Source of the DNA: an uncultured Verrucomicrobiae bacterium
Lineage (GTDB): Bacteria > Verrucomicrobiota > Verrucomicrobiia > Chthoniobacterales > Chthoniobacteraceae
NCBI GenBank assembly: GCA_963769025.1
Contig: CAVYKI010000009.1
Span: 160,001 to 224,000, forward strand
Direction: 5' to 3'
Length of the DNA stretch: 64,000 bases
A program made the translations under genes and the position numbers. Under the pieces are notes generated by a model. That model saw only the letters and a list, made by a program, of their open reading frames with translations. It was not told the origin of the DNA and ran no database searches. Positions 25,939-57,154 of this stretch are shown in pieces (the first letter of the stretch is position 1; each line of letters starts with the position of its first letter).

Positions 25939-26047
25939 TGGTGTCACCTTGCCTCCGACAATGTGGACGCGCGCGAAGCGGTTCAATCGGAAACATCTTT
26001 TCGTTTGCGCGTCGCGCGATGGCACGGCAGAAAGCGCGCAGGGAATT

Positions 26048-47434: not shown

Positions 47435-48607
47435 CTATTTCACGCGGTCGATCAGCTCGGCGAACTGGCGGAAGAAATACGTCGCGTCGTTCGGGCCGGG
47501 CGCGGCCTCGGGGTGGTACTGCACGCTGAAAACCGGCAGCGACTTGTGCGCGCAGTCCCTCGACGGTCTGGTCGTTGAGGTTGATGTGCGTGACCTCGAC
47601 ATCCTGCGGCAGCGACTCGGCATCCACCGCGAAGCCGTGATTCTGCGAGGTGATCGTGACCTTGCCCGTGCGCGAGATCCTTCACCGGCTGGTTGCCGCC
47701 GCGGTGGCCAAACTTCAGCTTGAACGTCTTTCCGCCGACCGCGTAGCCGAGCATCTGGTGCCCGAGGCAGATGCCGAAGATCGGCGTGCGGCCCATGAGC
47801 TTGCGGATGTTTTCGTGGACGTAGGTGAGCGCCGCGGGATCGCCGGGGCCGTTGGAAAGGAAGACGCCGTCGGGCTTCAGCGCGAGCACGTCCTCGGCGG
47901 ACGAAATTCGCGGGCACGACGCTGCACCTGGAAACCTTCCTGCCGCAGCCGGCGCAGGATGTTCGTCTTCATTCCGAAATCATACGCGACGATTTTGTGA
48001 CGCACCGGCGGGAGCTTCTTGAAGACCTCGTTGCCCTCGCGGATTTCCACGCCCGAGCCGTCGCCCTTCACGATCGTCCACTCCGGCGACAGCGTGTCCG
48101 TCCGGATCCCAATCGAATGCTGCCGCGGGCGTCACCTCTTTCACAAAATCCGAGCCCGCCATCGGCGGCGCGCCCTTGGCCCGCGCGATGGCCGCGTCCG
48201 ACATCGAGTCTCGCTCGTGAGGCACGCCTGCATCGCGCCGCGCGAGCGCAGGTGCTTGGTCAGCGCGCGGGTGTCGACGCCCTGGATGCCGGGGATTTTC
48301 CACTTCGCAGATAGTCGTGAGGTCGCCGGTCGAGCGCCAGTTGCTCGGGATGGCGGACAGTTCCTCGATCACAAAGCCGCGCACGTGCGGCTGCAGCGCT
48401 CTCGTCGTCGAGCGCATTGATGCCGTAGTTGCCGATCTGCGGCGCAGTCATCGCGACGATCTGTCCGCGATACGAGGGATCGGTGAGCACCTCCTGGTAT
48501 CCGGTCATCGAGGTGTTGAAACAGACCTCGCCGACCGCGGTCCCGGGAGCACCAAAGGATTCACCGATAAAGTGACGGCCATCTTCGAGAGCAAGGACAG
48601 AGCGCAT
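47435..48607 (-). CDS. carA: Carbamoyl-phosphate synthase small subunit (multiple frameshifts)
   Basis: [68 protein letters not shown] across several frames. Confidence 0.93.
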
Positions 48608-48737
48608 GAGCGCGCGGAACATGCGCAGCCGTGCGGAAAGTGCGAAGAAAAAACTCGCGGAAAATTTGCAGCCCTCGCGCGGGTGCGTAGCGCGGGCAAT
48701 CCTGCCCGCCGGGGGAGGTCGCGTTCGTGGTCACCCT

Positions 48738-48983: not shown

Positions 48984-50063
48984 TTATTCGATTTGGATCG
49001 CCGCGGCCTGCGCCTGCAACGACAGCTCGGCGGCGAGGAATGCGTGCTCCTGCGTCATCGCATTCTCGGTGCGGTTCAGGCAGTCGAGGATGAGCTGGCC
49101 GAAATACGGGAAGCCCACTTCGCCGTGGCAGCGGATGTGATGCTCGCCCTTGTTGTCCACGAGGAAAAGGTGATCGCCCTCCGCCTCCGTCGCGACGTTC
49201 AGATACTTCCGCACCTCGATGTAGCCCTCGGTGCCGAGGATGAACGTCCGCCCGTCGCCCCACGTGCGCAGGCCCTGCGGATTCAGCCAGTCCACGCGCA
49301 CGTAATTCGTCGCCCCGTTGTCCGCGATGAGGTTCGCCTGCCCCCAGTCCTCGAACTCCGCGTATTGCTTGTGGTGATAATTCGCCACCGCCGCATGCAC
49401 GATGCGCGCGCTCTTCGCCCCCGTGTAGGTGAGGAACTGCTCGAACTGATGGCTCCCGAGATCGATCAGGATGCCGCCGCATTTCTCGCGGCTCCAAAAC
49501 CACGGCGGGCGCGTGCCCGGATTGCTCCGGTGCGGCCCCATGCCCATCACCTGCACCACGCGGCCGATCGCCCCCTGCTCGATGAGCTGCCCCGCGCGGA
49601 TGCTCGCCTCCACGTGCAGCCGTTCCGAAAAATACACCGCATACTTTTTCCCCGTGCGTTTCACCGCCGCACGCGCCCCGTCGAGCTGCGCCAACGTCGT
49701 GAACGGTGCCTTGTCGGTAAAGTAATCCTTCCCCGCCTCCAGCACGCGGCATCCCAGCGGCCCGCGATCGCTCGGCACCGCCGCCGAAGCCACGAGCTGC
49801 ACGTCGCGTTGCGCGAGCACCTCGTCCATCGAGCGAAGCGCCTTCGCCGCCGGATATTTTTCCCGGAATTTCTCCACCTTCGCCGCATCCGGATCGAACA
49901 CATACCGGCACTCGCCGCCCGCCTCCGTGAGCCCCTGGCATTGCCCGTAGATGTGCCCGTGGTCGAGCGCCGCCGCCGCGAAGACAAACTCCCCCGGCTT
50001 CACCACCGGCGAAGGTTTCCCCACCGGCGCGTAATTCATTCCGTCTGATTTTTGGTGTGCCAT
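48984..50063 (-). CDS. Gfo/Idh/MocA family oxidoreductase
   Basis: LDHGHIY, GKDYFTDKAP, GGILIDLGSHQ, GTEGYIE. Confidence 0.88.
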   Translation of the reverse strand: MAHQKSDGMNYAPVGKPSPVVKPGEFVFAAAALDHGHIYGQCQGLTEAGGECRYVFDPDAAKVEKFREKYPAAKALRSMDEVLAQRDVQLVASAAVPSDRGPLGCRVLEAGKDYFTDKAPFTTLAQLDGARAAVKRTGKKYAVYFSERLHVEASIRAGQLIEQGAIGRVVQVMGMGPHRSNPGTRPPWFWSREKCGGILIDLGSHQFEQFLTYTGAKSARIVHAAVANYHHKQYAEFEDWGQANLIADNGATNYVRVDWLNPQGLRTWGDGRTFILGTEGYIEVRKYLNVATEAEGDHLFLVDNKGEHHIRCHGEVGFPYFGQLILDCLNRTENAMTQEHAFLAAELSLQAQAAAIQIE

Positions 50064-50353
50064 GTCGTGCCGCGGAAAATGAACGCCCCTCCCGCGAATT
50101 GCAACGCGGCGCTGCGGCAGTCCGGCATTCGTAAAAAGCTGGCCCGTCGCAAACCCGCCCGACCCATCCCGTCCCGGATGCCGCCCTCTCCACCTCATCC
50201 CGACGCATTTCGGCATCGTCAAATCGGGGAGCCGGATGGTCACGGGAAGGTGCGAAACCATCCCGCCCCGCTTCGACACGAATCCGTGGCGAAACTGGAT
50301 GGCTTTGATGACGAACCGAATCATCCAGTCGTGGAATGGGATGTTTCAGACAG

Positions 50354-50707
50354 GGAACTGGATCGTTCAGTCGCGGAACTGGATCGTTCAGTCGTGGAAC
50401 TGAATCGTTCAGTCGTGGAACTGGATCGTTCAGTCGCGGAACTGAATCGTTCAGTCGTGGAACTGGATCGTTCAGTCGCGGAACTGGATCGTTCAGTCGT
50501 GGAACTGAATCGTTCAGTCGCGGAACTGGATCGTTCAGTCGCGGAACTGGATCGTTCAGTCGCGGAACTGGAATCGTTCAGTCGCGGAACTGGATCGTTC
50601 AGTCGCGGAACTGGATCGTTCAGTCGCGGAACTGAATCGTTCAGTCGCGGAACTGGATCGTTCAGTCGCGGAACTGGATCGTTCGGTCGCGGAACTGGAT
50701 CGTTCGG
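50354..50707. repeat. Tandem array of about 17 x 21-bp units GGAACTGRATCGTTCAGTCGY
   Basis: 16 full units and one partial, counted directly; unit 11 has one extra base; degenerate units extend upstream to about 50285. Confidence 0.97.
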
Positions 50708-50727
50708 ACAAGGAGCCAAATGACCGG

Positions 50728-50773
50728 GAAAAGGGGCAAAAACGCCCATTTTCGCGGAAAATGCGGCCTTTTC
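50728..50773. terminator. Nested hairpin between the array and the 3' end of the MmeI-like gene
   Basis: CATTTTC-GCG-GAAAATG inside GAAAAGG...CCTTTTC. Confidence 0.45.
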
Positions 50774-50872
50774 ACACGGCGGATCACTCCTGCGAAGCCG
50801 AAGCTCGCTCCCGATGGGGCCTCAGAACGCCTCCGCAGCGACCGCGGGATCGGCCCATTCAGACCGCGCGTA

Positions 50873-53848
50873 TCAGGCACCCGGGCGGATGCAATCGTCG
50901 GTGAGAAGGCTTTCCGGATTCGGGAAGCCGGCAGGGATGCCGGGCGCGGTGACGGGTTCGCCGTGTTGCGATGCGGGCGGCGACCTGTTGGTTCAGGGCG
51001 AGGAGTTGGGCGAGGAGGTCGGCCTTGGCGGTGAAGCCGTAGGCGGCGAGGACGGCGGCATCGAGGGCGGCGTGGGCGTCCTTGAGCGGGTTGGCGCCGG
51101 GGAGTTCGAGCGTGCGGTAGAGCGCCCTCAGCCCGCCCTTGAGCTTCGGCAACGCCTCCGCACGGATGCGCCGCACCTCCCGCCCGGCGGCGGCGACGGC
51201 GCTCACCGCTTTCGCCTCCGGGCTCTGCGGCCAGGGGAAGGTGTCGAAGACGGATGGCGGCGTGTAGCGGAAGTCTGACTTGAGCTTGCTGCACTTGGTC
51301 ACGAACCACAGCCAGTGCGCGTGCGATTGGAGAATGCCGAAGCTGTAGTCGTCCGCGAATGCGAAACACGTCGAGCGTGTGATCGGGCGAATCGTCCGAG
51401 CGAGAAATGCAAAGATCGGGCGCTTGGTGACGTCGGAGCACGCGATGTAGCGCGGCATCGTTGCGAGATCGCGATCGAGCATTCGCGGCGTCGACCGCAC
51501 GAGCTGCCACCAAGTATCGAGGAATCGGCTTGTGGTGCGCGCGCTTTCGCCTTCCGCAGATCCTTGCTCTGCTCGGCTTTCTTCTCGCCGATCGGGCAGG
51601 ACGCGCTGTTGCACGACAGCGCAACGGGCTTGGATAGCTGACGCCTCGAGCATGTTCCGCGTGCTGGAAGTCGATGACGCACTCGCTCTGGCGAGCCGTC
51701 GCCAGTGAGCAAGTCCGCGCCCGATGAGAAAGGATGAATGACCTCGGCGGTTGCGGGATCGCGCTTGATCAATTCCGCGCGCTCATGCGGCGCTGAGACG
51801 GAAGCCTTCATGCCCGGAGCTCTGACCCTTGAAGCAACGCTTGCGGCTTCGTATTGCATCGCAACGACCTGTGCACCGCCACGTCCGTTTGGTCGGACAG
51901 CGCGGAGTTGATTTGCGCTACGTCGCGGAAGCTCAGTTCGTATTCCTTCGCCGCGCTTTTCCCCTGCGACTTCCACAGCTTCTTCATCGCGGCAGTCGGC
52001 TCGACCTTGAACCACAGCCGCCGCGTCTTCGGCAGCAGCGCGGCGTCCTGCGTCTTCACCCAATTGGCGATGGAGACGTGGACGTTCGCCTCGCCGCTCC
52101 ACGGCTGGTTGTCCACGGCTTCGACGATGGTGCCGTCCTTCACGACGTGATCGAGGCCGCCGACGCGGGATTGGTTGTTGCGGATGTTCTGCGTGCCGAC
52201 GAGGCCCGCGCGCCCGGCCACGGGATCGGCGGCGGTGCAGGTCGCGAGGTGGTCGTGCGCGCGGCGAATCCAATAGACGCAGAAGTCCGCCATGCCGGGC
52301 ACCTCGGGGTAGAGCTTGCGCAGCGTGTTCACGTAGTCGGGGCCGCGCTCGGGCTTGAGCAGCTTCGCGCCGAGGAAGGGCGGATTGCCGATGATGACAT
52401 CGGCCTGCGGCCACGGGGTGCGTGACGGGCTCGCGCCGTCGGGGTCCGGTGGTCGCAGCAGCGCGTCGGTCGGCGCTGAAGTTCTCGTCGAGATTGTCGA
52501 GCGGCAGGGCCTGCTCGGCGATGTGCAGCTCGTCGATGGCGAGCTTGCGGGCGATCATCATCGTGACCTTCGCGAGCTCGACGGCGAAGGGGTTGATGTC
52601 CAGGCCGAAGAAGTTCTGCGCGGTGAGGAAGGAGAGGCGCATCTGGCCCTCGCCCTCGCTGGCGTGCTTCGGGAACTCGGTGTCGATGCGCTCGCAGATG
52701 CGGGCCTCCAGCCGCTTCATCTCGCGGTAGGCGATGTAGAGGAAGTTGCCGCGAGCCGCAGGCGGGGTCGAGCACGCGGAAGTCGTGCAGCCGGTCGCGG
52801 AGTTCGCGCAGGCGCTTGACGGTCTTCGCGCCTTCGATCTGCTCGCGCCACGGCTCGGACGATGGTCGGCCCGACGATCTTCATGATGTCGACCGGGATG
52901 GGTGAAGTGCGCGCCGAAGGCGTGGCGTTCATCGCGCGTGCCTTCCATGCCGCTCGAGCATGCTCGAAGAGGGTGCCGAAGATTTCCGGCTGCACCTTCG
53001 ACCAGTCGAAGCGTGGCGGCCTTGCGCAGGGCGACGAGCTCGTCGGTCGTGCAGCTCCAGCCGCGCGGGCTCGGCGAAGAGGCCGCCATTGAAGTAGGCG
53101 ACGCCCTTGAACCGCCCGCCGGTGGCGCGGCCTTGGTGTTCATCGCCTCGAAGAGGCCGCCGAGCAGGTCGTAGCTGTCGGCGGGCGATGTGCAGTCGTC
53201 GAGGAGCTGGGTGACGAAGTATTTCGGGAGCAGGTCGATGTCCTCGGCGAAGAGGGCGACGAGCATTTGCAGGATGAAGCGCTGGGCGGTGGGCGGTCCA
53301 CGCCGCGCTTGCGGAACTTGCGGAAGCACGTCGGCGAGGCAGTCGGCGGCTTCGCGGGTGACGGCGACGCGGTCGTTGTCGAAGACGGGCTTGGGCTGGC
53401 CGGGGAAGAGGAAAGCCAGCGGGCCGTAGTGCCCGGCGAGGCTGTCGAGCTTCGCGATGCCGACGGGCGAGTCCATCTGCGTCTCGAAGTCGTAGACCTG
53501 GAACTCGTCGAAGTTGCAGAGGACGACGTAGCGCGGGCGGCCGGGGACGAGGCGCGTCCAGTAGTCGAAGGCCTGGCGGTAGTGCTTCGAGAGCACCGCG
53601 CCGCGCTTCTTCATTTCGATGAGGACGACGGGCTTCCAGACGTAGTCGGCGAAGCTGGTGCCGCCGCCGTCCTCGGTGGCCTTGCGGACGCGGAACTCGG
53701 GCTCGCCGCCGACGTCGAGCGAGCCCGCGTGGCCGAAGGCGAGGAAGAGGCGGTCGAGGAAGATCTGCGCCTGGCCTTTTTCGTCGCCGGTGATGTGGGC
53801 CTGCGCCCATGCGGTGAAGGCGGCGAGTTTGTCCGTGGGGCTGTTCAT
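50873..53848 (-). CDS. MmeI-like (type IIG/IIL) fused restriction endonuclease-N6 adenine methyltransferase (many frameshifts)
   Basis: EKGQAQIF, ADYVWK.VVLIEMKKRG nuclease motif, YVVLCNFDEF, YFNGGLF, PEIFGTLFE, LDPACGS, IIGNPPFLG, FRYTPPSVFDTFPWP, HAALDAAVLAAYG. Confidence 0.88.
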
Positions 53849-53945
53849 GGTTCCAGTGGCGCGGGCTGTAGCAGCGGCGCGGGAAGTTGGCGAGCGCCGC
53901 TTGCCTTGATTGGGGTGGGGGGATAACGACTGCGCTCCGCTTTTC

Positions 53946-56900
53946 ATGAATCCCACCCGCACCGCGCTCCGCCGACCGATGACCGTCCTGGTCGCTGGTG
54001 ATCGCGGTGTGCCTCGGCGGCGTGGCTCGCGATCCAGCGGATGACGCGCGACATCTTCCCGCCGCTCGGCATCCCGACGATCTATGTGGCGCAGCCGTAC
54101 GGCGGCATGGACCCGGCGCAGATGGAGGGCTACCTGACCTACCGCTACGAGTATCACTTTCTCTACATCGCGAACATCGAGCACGTGGAGTCGAAGTCCA
54201 TCCAGGGCGCTTCGATCATGAAGCTGCAGTTTCATCCCGGCACGGACATGTGCCAGGCGATGTCGGAGACGGTCGCGCAGGTGAATCGCTCGCGCGCCTT
54301 CATGCCGCCGGGCACGGTCGCGCCGTTCATCATGCGGTTCGATGCGGGCAGCGTCGCGGTCGGCTATCTCGTCTTCTCCACGGAGGATCCGAACATCACG
54401 CTCGAACCAGATGCAGGACCAGGCGCTGAACCGCGTGCGTCCCGCGTTTGCCACGCTGCCGGGCGTGTCGGCGCCGCCGCCGTTCGGCGGCAGCTCGCGC
54501 GGCATCATGGTGAATGTGAACCCGGACCGGATGCAGGCCTACGGGCTCTCGCCGGACGACATCGTGAAGGCGCTCGCGCAGGGCAACCTCGATCAGCCCG
54601 TCGGGCAACATGAATCTCGGCGGGCAAATATCCCATCGTGGCGATGAACGCGATCGTCACGAATCGTGAAGGACCTCGAGGCGGTGCCGCTGAAGCAGAC
54701 GGCGAACGGCGCGGTCTTCGTGCGCGACGTGGCGACGGTCGCGGACGCGCGCGGACGTGACCACTTCCTACGCGCTCGCGAATGGCAAGCGCACCGTCTA
54801 TCTGCCGGTCACGAAGCGCGCCGAGGCCTCGACGCTCGCGGTCGTGGAGACTGGTGAAGAAGAACATCCCGGAATTCCAGAAGCTGCTGCCGGACGGCAT
54901 CAAGGTGAGCTACGAGTTCGACCAGTCGCCGGTGGTGAACCGCTCGCATCAAGGATCTGCTGAAGGAAGGCGGGCTCGGCGCGATCCTCACCGGCACTGA
55001 TGGTGCTGCTGTTCCTGCGCGACTGGCGCACGCGCGTTCATCGTGGTGATCAACATCCCGCTCTCGCTGCTCGCCGCGGCGTTCGCGCTGTGGATCAGCG
55101 GGCAGAACATCCACCTCATGACGCTCGGCGGCCTCGCGCTCGCGGTCGGCATCCTCGTGGATGAGGCGACGGTCGCGGTGGAAAACATCCACGCGCACCT
55201 CGCGCGCGGCACGTCCGCTCGCGCGCGCGGCGCTCGACGGCACGCTGCGAGACGGCGCTGCCGCGTTTGCTCGCGATGCTGTGCATTCTCGCGGTGTTCA
55301 TCCCGGCGTTCTTCATGGTCGGCGCGGCGCAGGCGCTCTTCGTGCCGATGGCGCTGGCGGTCGGCTTCGCGATGGTCGCGTCGTTCATCCTGTCGAGCAC
55401 GCTGGTGCCGATCCTCAGCGTGTGGTTTCTCCGCGGACACGACGAAGGCAGTCCACGATGCGTCCGTCTGTCGGCAGGCTGCAGTCGCGTCTACGCGGGC
55501 GTGCTCCGCGGCGTGGTCGCGGTGCGCTGGCCGCTGGTGCTGATCTATCTGGTCGCTGCGGGTGCGGCGGTCTGGATCATCGGCGGCCGGCTCGGCACGG
55601 AGATTTTCCCGAAGACGGACACCGGGCAGTTTGCGCTGCGCTTCCGCGCGCCGAGCGGCACGCAGGTCGGCATGACGGAGAGCAATCGCGCAGCAGATCC
55701 TCGCCATCATCGCCCGCGAGGCCGGCGGCGCGGACAAGGTCGAGATGACCATCGGCATGGTCGGCGTGCACAATTCCAGCTTCCCCGTGAATCTCGTCCA
55801 TCTCTGGAACGGCGGCCCCGAGGAAGGCTGGCTCGCGGTGCAGCTCAAGCGCGGCACCGGCGTGCAGATCGAGGCATTCAAGGAGCGGCTGCGCGGCGTG
55901 CTCGCGAAGGAGCTGCCCGACGTGCGCCTGTCCTTCGAGCCGCAGGACATCGTCACGCGCGTGATGAGCTTCGGCTCGCCGACGCCCATCGAGATCGCCG
56001 TCAGCGGCCCGAGCCTCGCCGGCGAGCAAGGACGCACGCGGAGAAGATTGCTCGCGAAGCTGCAAGAAGCTCCCCTTCCTGCGCGATGTGCAGATCGCGC
56101 AGACGCTCGATTTCCCGACCGTGAATGTGAAGATCAACCGCGAGCGCGCCGGCCTGCTCGGCGTGAATGTCGAGGACGTCACGCGCTCGCTCGTCGCCGC
56201 GACGACATCGAGCCGCTTCACCATCGCCGAATCTACTGGGCCGATCCCGGCACGGGCATCAGCTTCAATCTGCAGGTGCAGATTCCCGAGGAGCGCACGC
56301 AGACGCATCGAGGACCTGAAGAACGTGCCGGTCACCGCCGAGCGGCGGCAAGACCGTGCTGCTGCGCAACCTCGCGGACATCGACGACCGGCACCGCCGT
56401 CGGCACCTACGAGCGCTACAACATGGCGCGCGTCGTCAGCATCACCGCGAACATTCACGGCACGGATCTCGGCACCGCGATCGCGCGAAATCCGCAAGGC
56501 GATCGCCGAGGTCGGACCTGCGCCCGACGGCAAGACGAAGGTGGATGTGCGCGGCCAGGTCGTGCCGCTGCGAGCAGCTGCATGGACGGCTTCCGCTCCG
56601 GGCTCATCATCGCGGTGCTCGTGATCTTCCTGATGCTCATGGCGAATTTCCAATCCGTGCGCCTCGCGCTCGCCGTCGTCTCCACGGTGCCCGCCGTGCT
56701 CGCCGGCGTGGTGCTCGCGCTGTGGCTCACGGGCACGACGCTGAACATCCAGTCCGCGATGGGCGCGATCATGGCCGTCGGCGTCGCGGTCGCGAATGCG
56801 ATCCTGCTCGTGACCTTCGCGGAAAAGGCGCGCGTCGCGCAGCGCCGATCCGCAGCGCCGCCGCCATCGAGGGCGCGCGCAGCCGCCTGCGGCCGATCCT

Positions 56901-57154
56901 GATGACCAGCTTCGCGATGATCGCCGGCATGATGCCGCTCGCGCTCGGCCTCGGCGAAGGCGGCGACCAGACCGCGCCGCTCGGCCGCGCCGTGGTCGGC
57001 GGCCTCGCTGCGGCCACGCTCGCCACGCTCTTCATCCTGCCCTGCGTCTTCGCCCTTCTCACGACACGCAAGGTCCGCTCCGCCTCGCTCGATCCCGGAT
57101 GATTCGGAGAGCGCGCATCACGCAATCAGCCAACTCCAAGTCCAGACACCATGA
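53946..57154 (+). CDS. RND efflux permease (AcrB/CusA family; many frameshifts; end 57101-57154 uncertain)
   Basis: [59 protein letters not shown]. Confidence 0.9.

Follow-up and report, generated by a model that had tools for sequence, protein, structure and literature searches.

An intergenic array of 21-bp palindromic units and related arrays in genomes of the Chthoniobacteraceae

Introduction

In the Chthoniobacteraceae genome studied here (labelled G000; C6, C9, C10 and C13 are contigs of it) an 800-bp spacer between two minus-strand genes holds a tandem array of 21-bp units, each with a palindromic core. The question raised by this locus is what keeps such an array regular, whether a function of its transcript, a protein that binds the DNA or the dynamics of the repeat itself. 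A preliminary description of the window, by which the whole analysed stretch of 64,000 nucleotides is meant, reported that the variants of the array preserve an RNA hairpin, and offered as explanations either a sponge or antitoxin RNA or phased binding sites for a dimer.

Structure and position of the array

The array is non-coding DNA (50354-50711) and comprises 17 head-to-tail units, 16 of them 21 bp and one 22 bp long. That it is real is clear from its being by far the strongest of the 35 rows returned by Tandem Repeats Finder for the window (50326-50705, period 21, 18.0 copies, 92% matches, score 632). Moreover, the degenerate unit pattern of the preliminary description matched 15 times in register against 0.01 expected, a number reached by none of 100 shuffles. 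When the units were laid out in register the count of 17 recognisable units held, with a 22-bp unit that had been missed, and the three variant classes that had been named were all correct. These are G/A at unit position 8 (A in 4 units), C/T at position 21 (T in 4 units) and A>G at position 16, the latter confined to the last two units; the last unit has 4 mismatches. The 22-bp unit is unit 11 (50564-50585), which carries a 1-base insertion, and since the assembly holds many frameshifted genes the extra base may be a sequencing error. The reported decay towards the left is seen in three units that precede the array (Table 1), and the units abut, in agreement with the statement that an array with no spacers is not a CRISPR.

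Table 1. Positions in the window of the array and of the features surrounding it
Feature	Position	Strand	Basis and remarks
GFO/IDH/MocA-family oxidoreductase gene	48984..50063	-	Pfam; array begins 228 bp upstream of the gene
Three decayed units, left edge of the array	50291..50353	none	Register listing; one core-like match, 3 mismatches, at 50315
Main array	50354..50711	none	Unit of a 15-bp imperfect palindrome (7-1-7) and a 6-bp linker
Example of a 15-bp near-palindromic core	50357..50371	none	Five Watson-Crick pairs and two G-T pairs on the + strand
Imperfect hairpin, right flank	50724..50757	none	A-run on one side, T-run on the other; ~100 nt beyond the stop codon of the MmeI-family gene (minus strand)
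MmeI-family restriction-modification gene	50859..54508	-	Pfam; split over several frames; 3' end faces the array

The palindrome of a single unit is modest. Its perfect arms reach 4 bp only, a length matched by 144 of 300 shuffled units; if G-U pairs are counted the arms reach 7 bp, which is equalled by 39 of 300 shuffles. In the sister array on contig C13, two units have the core in a fully symmetric form. The array is poorer in GC (0.52-0.57) than the genes that flank it (0.62-0.70). The common unit contains GATC, and the main variants (unit positions 8-10) of all three sister arrays each destroy this site.

The oxidoreductase gene probably starts at 50063, because its first nine codons are conserved in relatives. 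The split MmeI-family gene on the other side is either a pseudogene or a product of assembly indel errors. Between 45000 and 58000 of the window carA (47452-48622), the MmeI-family gene and AcrB-type fragments (54342-56902) are all split over frames, from which indel-prone long-read sequencing can be inferred behind the G000 assembly (13 contigs, 83% completeness). As the split genes suggest assembly indel errors, single-base indels in the repeats are not to be trusted. Among named records the nearest are MAGs that carry the label Chthoniobacteraceae, Chthoniobacter or Chthoniobacterales. On C9 the GC skew turns from positive to negative near 650 kb, as would be expected if this contig carried an origin or terminus of replication.

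The hairpin that had been placed at 50728-50773, to the right of the array, folds at 50724-50757 instead. It resembles a bidirectional terminator; it failed the terminator scan, in which the sole terminator-like site (50155-50141, minus strand) was outside the array. An A/T-run palindrome at 50752-50768 has exact matches of 13-15 nt at about 30 other places in the genome, several-fold above the number estimated for chance, and may be a common intergenic signal.

MmeI-family enzymes cut about 20 nt from their site, and the only gene of this family in G000 abuts the array. A link between the two was considered and dropped: the MTase domain is found in 28 of the 30 genomes of the genus and arrays in 8 of the 30 (G000 included), a comparison that cannot discriminate, and a domain so widespread does not account for arrays of patchy occurrence.

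Related arrays in the genome

The preliminary description had proposed a search of the genome and of relatives for the unit, and this gave sister arrays on C13 and C10 as well as the arrays of other genomes described below. With up to 4 mismatches the unit is found 39 times in G000, that is 16 times in the main array, 18 times on C13, three times on C10 and twice probably by chance. The array on C13 (22037-22428) is composed of the main-array unit in 18.7 copies, while the 17.5-copy array on C10 (337034-337400) has a 15-bp core identical to that of the main array and a different 6-bp linker. A BLAST search of G000 with the unit returned the sister arrays only, and all three loci with the main-array unit are intergenic. 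Nothing common to the three sister loci was found by BLAST of their 600-bp flanks. Local alignment gave two weak similarities, between the flanks of the window locus and of C10 only (28/36 bases, z = 5.7, and 22/27 bases, z = 3.4), and these segments are not repeated elsewhere; as sequence similarities they are a hint of a possible composite element.

Many further arrays of G000 have units unrelated to the main-array unit. Eighteen non-overlapping arrays have a period of 19-100 bp and 3.5 copies or more; in 13 of them the period is exactly 21 bp (7 arrays) or 42 bp (6 arrays), and palindrome-bearing arrays are present with both periods. The arrays are located between ORFs that carry the codon signature of the genome and are thus intergenic.

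Arrays in related genomes

Relatives were scanned for a 9-nt centre motif occurring three times in a row, with controls. At a fixed spacing of 21 bp there were matches in 3 of 301 genomes of the order, all of one family. With the spacing left free between 18 and 24 bp, 10 of the 151 genomes in this family matched, from 3 of 29 genera; neither scan gave a control match. Among the matches listed from the 18-24-bp scan, all were 51 nt long (21 + 21) except five of 52 nt, which had one extra base each. Since a scan that admitted 18-24 bp still gave 21-bp matches, the period is held even where linkers and outer arms differ completely. The repeat class is confined to a few related soil and sediment Verrucomicrobia, and the exact two-core pattern had no match in the species-representative genome collection or in metagenome contigs. 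Counts of array presence and absence are lower bounds, because most relatives are represented by MAGs built from short reads, and these recover long arrays poorly. Such arrays are also under-counted in MAG collections because they are located at synteny breakpoints and break short-read assemblies.

The core itself is found in 4 of the 30 genomes of the genus, with 45 copies in G000 and one in each of the three others. In two relatives, G004 and G014, it lies within 2.4-2.5 copies of a near-identical unit (19/21 bases), and these copies directly adjoin another 21-bp array with changed arms that has 17.8 copies in G004 and 3.6 copies in G014 at the orthologous position. The site corresponds to about 25978-25994 of the window (C9:185978-185994), where G000 has no array. 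The product of the gene downstream of the G004 and G014 arrays begins with MQGT. The site lies 24 kb from the main array and is cleanly polymorphic for the presence or absence of arrays.

No array or core-like sequence was found upstream of the oxidoreductase orthologue in 7 loci of the genus or in 14 named Chthoniobacteraceae loci, and the gene upstream of this orthologue is different in each of the three relatives examined. The absence of the array and the differing upstream neighbour in relatives indicate that the main array marks a break in synteny and is a young feature of the locus. In one of the 7 genus loci, that of G014, a decayed 22-bp array of unrelated sequence (L006 817-974; 7.2 copies, 61% matches) precedes the oxidoreductase orthologue by about 600 bp.

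Contigs of other metagenomes span both junctions of the main array with an identity of at least 93%. The left junction and about nine units are covered over 339 nt with 23 differences in two runs of one study, and the right junction is covered by contigs from a third run belonging to another study. As both junctions are covered by contigs of other metagenomes, the array is real in related strains and is not an assembly artefact.

Compensatory changes in the palindrome

Symmetry was assessed in 16 distinct arrays from the family scan, at three arm positions that the search motif did not include. Averaged per array, the positions 5, 6 and 7 steps away from the centre formed Watson-Crick pairs in 66%, 75% and 62% of units, respectively, against 9-47% when the partners were slid. 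Fourteen representative units were aligned without gaps, with the phase set by likeness to the main-array unit; here 91.7% of the cells of a six-pair helix were paired against 80.0 +/- 2.9 in shuffles, and 10 cells had a double change against 4.3 +/- 1.7; neither value was reached in 500 shuffles. The rows of both covariation tests were chosen by us, and the shuffle tests are inflated because the arrays are related to one another. One helix pair appears across the 14 units as AU (6), UA (3), GC (2), GU (2) and UG (1). Three columns are invariant in these units and the centre is near-palindromic. Across arrays, compensatory changes thus preserve the dyad symmetry. Centre motifs that occur in isolation have arms paired at random level only, with 198, 240, 77 and 16 sites having 0, 1, 2 and 3 paired positions.

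Origin and maintenance of the arrays

The features observed above, i.e. the structure of the array, its spread over several loci, gain and loss between species, difference in copy number, covariation of the arms and fixed period, are best explained if the array is a member of a DNA-level minisatellite family that is prone to form hairpins, expands and contracts, and is restricted to one lineage. We hold this explanation with moderate confidence. The mechanism that we infer is hairpin slippage, in which the palindromic cores would fold when the DNA is single-stranded during replication or repair, and the folded cores would promote out-of-register re-pairing in steps of one unit, so that arrays could grow and shrink. 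Repeated exchange from unit to unit would keep the interior of an array uniform while its edges decay. Arm complementarity might be kept by repair templated within the hairpin, or because only units that form a hairpin keep expanding, and from time to time a copy would start a new array elsewhere, at another intergenic site or at the junction of a rearrangement. The promoter of the neighbouring oxidoreductase gene would be affected only incidentally, if at all.

The unit length of 21 bp (and 42 bp), 21 bp being two helical turns, is held exactly, for which the minisatellite reading offers no reason. Slippage alone does not account for 21 bp in about 20 arrays with different linkers, although single 22-bp units do arise. 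Moreover, the compensatory changes of the arms and the common centre could equally reflect selection by a protein or RNA function.

The fixed length of 21 or 42 bp is the feature that, tentatively, keeps alive a reading by a protein or a 'ruler'. The cores might be phased sites, each occupied by a dimeric DNA-binding protein (nucleoid-associated, partition-type or regulatory), which would line up on one face of the helix and form a cooperative filament or loop. This was one of the two options of the preliminary description, and its spacing of two helical turns has gained strong support, since the period was still 21 bp when 18-24 bp was admitted and is exact across arrays with differing linkers. 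The near-palindromic centre with its three invariant columns and the constant intergenic position of the arrays are also consistent with bound sites. However, several arm sequences coexist in one genome and the outer arms covary, which a single protein that reads double-stranded DNA does not need. With arm pairing at random level in the isolated centre motifs, single sites form no regulon; a Pfam scan of flanks showed no gene for partition or replication, and the array is absent at the orthologous loci of sister species. Phased protein sites are therefore possible but doubtful.

A further reading, for which we have equally little confidence, is that a few Chthoniobacteraceae lineages have a length-measuring system, by which intergenic arrays would be built or kept in exact quanta of two turns (21 bp, or 42 bp in other units). 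A trans-acting factor would recognise the small folded hairpin with its conserved centre and set the unit length, either during the copying of units or by selection of arrays that fit a nucleoprotein scaffold. If true, this would be a length-measuring repeat mechanism of a kind that is not known to have been described for bacteria.

It is unlikely that the array is a purely neutral VNTR, in which a local 21-mer expanded by chance and neither sequence nor symmetry nor length is constrained. Such a VNTR would agree with copy numbers that differ between species (17.8 and 3.6), with arrays present or absent at orthologous sites, with the decayed edges and the stem-breaking changes in a related strain described below, and with a palindrome that in one unit is not significant alone. 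It does not agree with the main-array unit being at three unrelated loci, with a period that stays at 21 bp in 10 genomes of 3 genera, with arm covariation above both the shuffled and the slid controls, or with the 2.4-2.5 near-identical unit copies that persist beside another array in G004 and G014.

The other option of the preliminary description, in which a transcript of the + strand folds into many small hairpins and serves as a protein sponge or is processed into a repeat RNA, fared worse and we regard it as very unlikely. The claim that the variants are tolerated on the + strand stands for G000 itself, where every variant in the three arrays keeps standard pairs: among 48 unit pairs, 100% of cells pair in the hairpin formed across the unit junction and 99.2% in the hairpin within the unit. 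The claim has little force, as each of the three variable pairs is altered on a single side and the observed pairing is equalled by 500 of 500 shuffles, which leaves the test powerless. Moreover, by our count 7 of the 12 possible stem transitions are tolerated on the + strand, so that three tolerated variants mean little (about 0.16-0.2 by chance). The covariation had already been called weak for want of variant sites, and rightly, since within G000 there are 0 double changes. Stem-breaking substitutions in relatives had been named as a sign against the RNA hairpin, and four of them (50368, 50401, 50413 and 50429) are present in units 1-5 of a contig from a related strain, together with one tolerated change at 50403 and further changes in the loop and the linker; this contig has a depth of about 3.5 and its register within the repeat may be ambiguous.

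Folding of the array, a check that had been proposed, gave a divided result. The fold is more stable on the + strand (-215.5 kcal/mol) than on the - strand (-169.9 kcal/mol), yet the minimum-energy structure is a long fold-back and not a row of hairpins with GGA loops, and a single junction hairpin has -5.5 kcal/mol with z = -0.36. GGA lies in the loop of the junction hairpin of the main array, which is one of two hairpin registers, and the C10 array and the related arrays have linkers other than the GGA linker. A search for csrA, also proposed, gave no PF02599 match in G000, which is 83% complete, whereas the control genomes responded. Rfam returned one match far below threshold (BSR0602, 17.9 bits, gathering score 191), the promoter scan gave no sigma-70-like site, and there is no toxin-like ORF downstream of the array, the flanking genes being the oxidoreductase and MmeI-family genes, both on the minus strand. 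In favour of an RNA, a hairpin with a U-run does come after the array. The orientation of the arrays towards their downstream neighbour is mixed: array and gene share a strand in 8 cases and are on opposite strands in 5, and in 4 there is no neighbour.

The departures from symmetry in the helix of the 14 units are mostly G-U on one strand (by our count 17 G-U against 3 A-C of 84 cells), which would favour an RNA. This excess of G-T over A-C may be mutational, because the G-rich strand of both C9 arrays is the leading strand (skew switch at about 650 kb). The strand bias was for this reason, and because of the shared descent of the arrays, rejected as an RNA signal.

Finally, it is extremely improbable that the array is an assembly artefact, given the independent contigs from other runs at both junctions, or the coding sequence of a heptad-repeat (coiled-coil) protein: the + frame does give a 7-residue repeat with hydrophobic residues three and four apart and many weak matches to coiled-coil families, but there is no Pfam match at the curated cut-off, the + frame is broken after 10 units by the 1-base insertion, the openness of all six frames follows only from the lack of stop codons in the unit, G or C occupies 3 of the 7 third-codon positions of the unit (our count) against at least 74% in the accepted genes of the ORF screen, most unit variants would change an amino acid, and the flanks of the three loci have no common ORF.

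Similar repeats in other bacteria

As in bacterial VNTRs and minisatellites, the units are arranged head-to-tail and their copy number or presence varies between close relatives. A narrow full-text search of the literature gave no description of 21-bp arrays in Verrucomicrobia. The closest published analogue is the minisatellite-MITE BrickBuilt of Porphyromonas gingivalis, which has 23-nt units in 1-22.8 copies at 19 intergenic loci and, at most of these, a conserved leader and tail with inverted-repeat ends (PMC4596501). Like the G000 arrays, BrickBuilt is spacer-less, has imperfect units of about two helical turns in 1 to about 23 copies, is present at several intergenic loci of one genome and is restricted to one lineage (PMC4596501). 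The arrays of the main unit differ from BrickBuilt in being at three loci only and in having a covarying palindrome in the unit; their flanks have nothing in common by BLAST, and local alignment gives the two weak similarities of 27-36 nt between two of the loci.

Transposed non-coding satellites are rare in prokaryotes and, according to the survey of Subirana and Messeguer (2019, PMC6749651), were found among 261 genomes only in Leptospira interrogans and Methanocella conradii. This source also indicates that non-coding satellites are rare in bacteria and that one unit at several sites is rarer still (PMC6749651). These satellites resemble the present arrays in being non-coding and in having one unit at several genomic sites; the families have long repeats, and period lock or palindrome covariation is not mentioned in the part of PMC6749651 covered. 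In the Chthoniobacteraceae a hairpin core and an exact two-turn unit length are kept across genera while the rest of the unit changes. This means either that DNA is measured by the helical turn, by a protein or an enzyme, or that repeat dynamics driven by hairpins are under tighter constraint than has been assumed.

The arrays share with plasmid and phage iterons and with sopC of the F plasmid the phasing of direct repeats at helical turns. In iterons and sopC this amounts to two or four turns, and some of these repeats contain internal inverted repeats bound by dimers. Unlike them, the arrays described here are many, of different sequence in one chromosome, and have covarying arms. The ORFs flanking the window locus and the C13 array were scanned with Pfam and PHROGs, and neither a rep or par gene (ParB/SopB-type) nor a plasmid or phage context was found. 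The contigs that bear arrays are chromosomal in size except for C13 (37.6 kb). A phage or plasmid origin of this contig was considered and rejected, its only content of this kind being a collagen-like protein (weak minor-tail match) and glycosyltransferases, and its ends have no overlap.

Short hairpin-capable units are also repeated in the sponge RNAs CsrB and RsmZ and in antitoxin RNAs of the ToxI type, and the GGA in the loop of one hairpin register adds to the likeness with the main array. The difference is that no CsrA gene was found in G000 (83% complete), that the array has no Rfam match near threshold and no adjacent toxin gene, and that the linkers of the related arrays differ from the GGA linker.

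REP elements and BIME-2 of Enterobacteria and Pseudomonas occur as hundreds of dispersed single or paired copies, and the RAYT gene is flanked by REP elements. Among the repeats compared here their clusters are the closest in hairpin content, being regular, made of extragenic palindromic units with hairpin potential and restricted to a lineage. Unlike REP and BIME, the units of the present arrays occur in arrays only, are not dispersed and have no link to a transposase. The only PF01797 (IS200/Y1-type transposase) gene of G000 (C9:554682-555725, 347 aa) is bracketed (C9:554646-555801) by 33-nt inverted repeats that are 88% complementary and found nowhere else in the genome. A REP/RAYT link was rejected, since the units are not dispersed and the inverted repeats of the Y1 gene are unrelated to any array.

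Two of the 42-bp arrays of G000, outside the window at C9:552487-552906 (10 copies) and C9:1246839-1247204 (8.7 copies), have a common 15-bp G/C palindrome. Each is located directly upstream of a member of a paralogous gene pair (76% identical), whose products have no Pfam match and contain a Trp/Asp-rich N-terminal stretch, and a sequence like a third 42-bp unit is found upstream of another paralogue on C6 near 654 kb.
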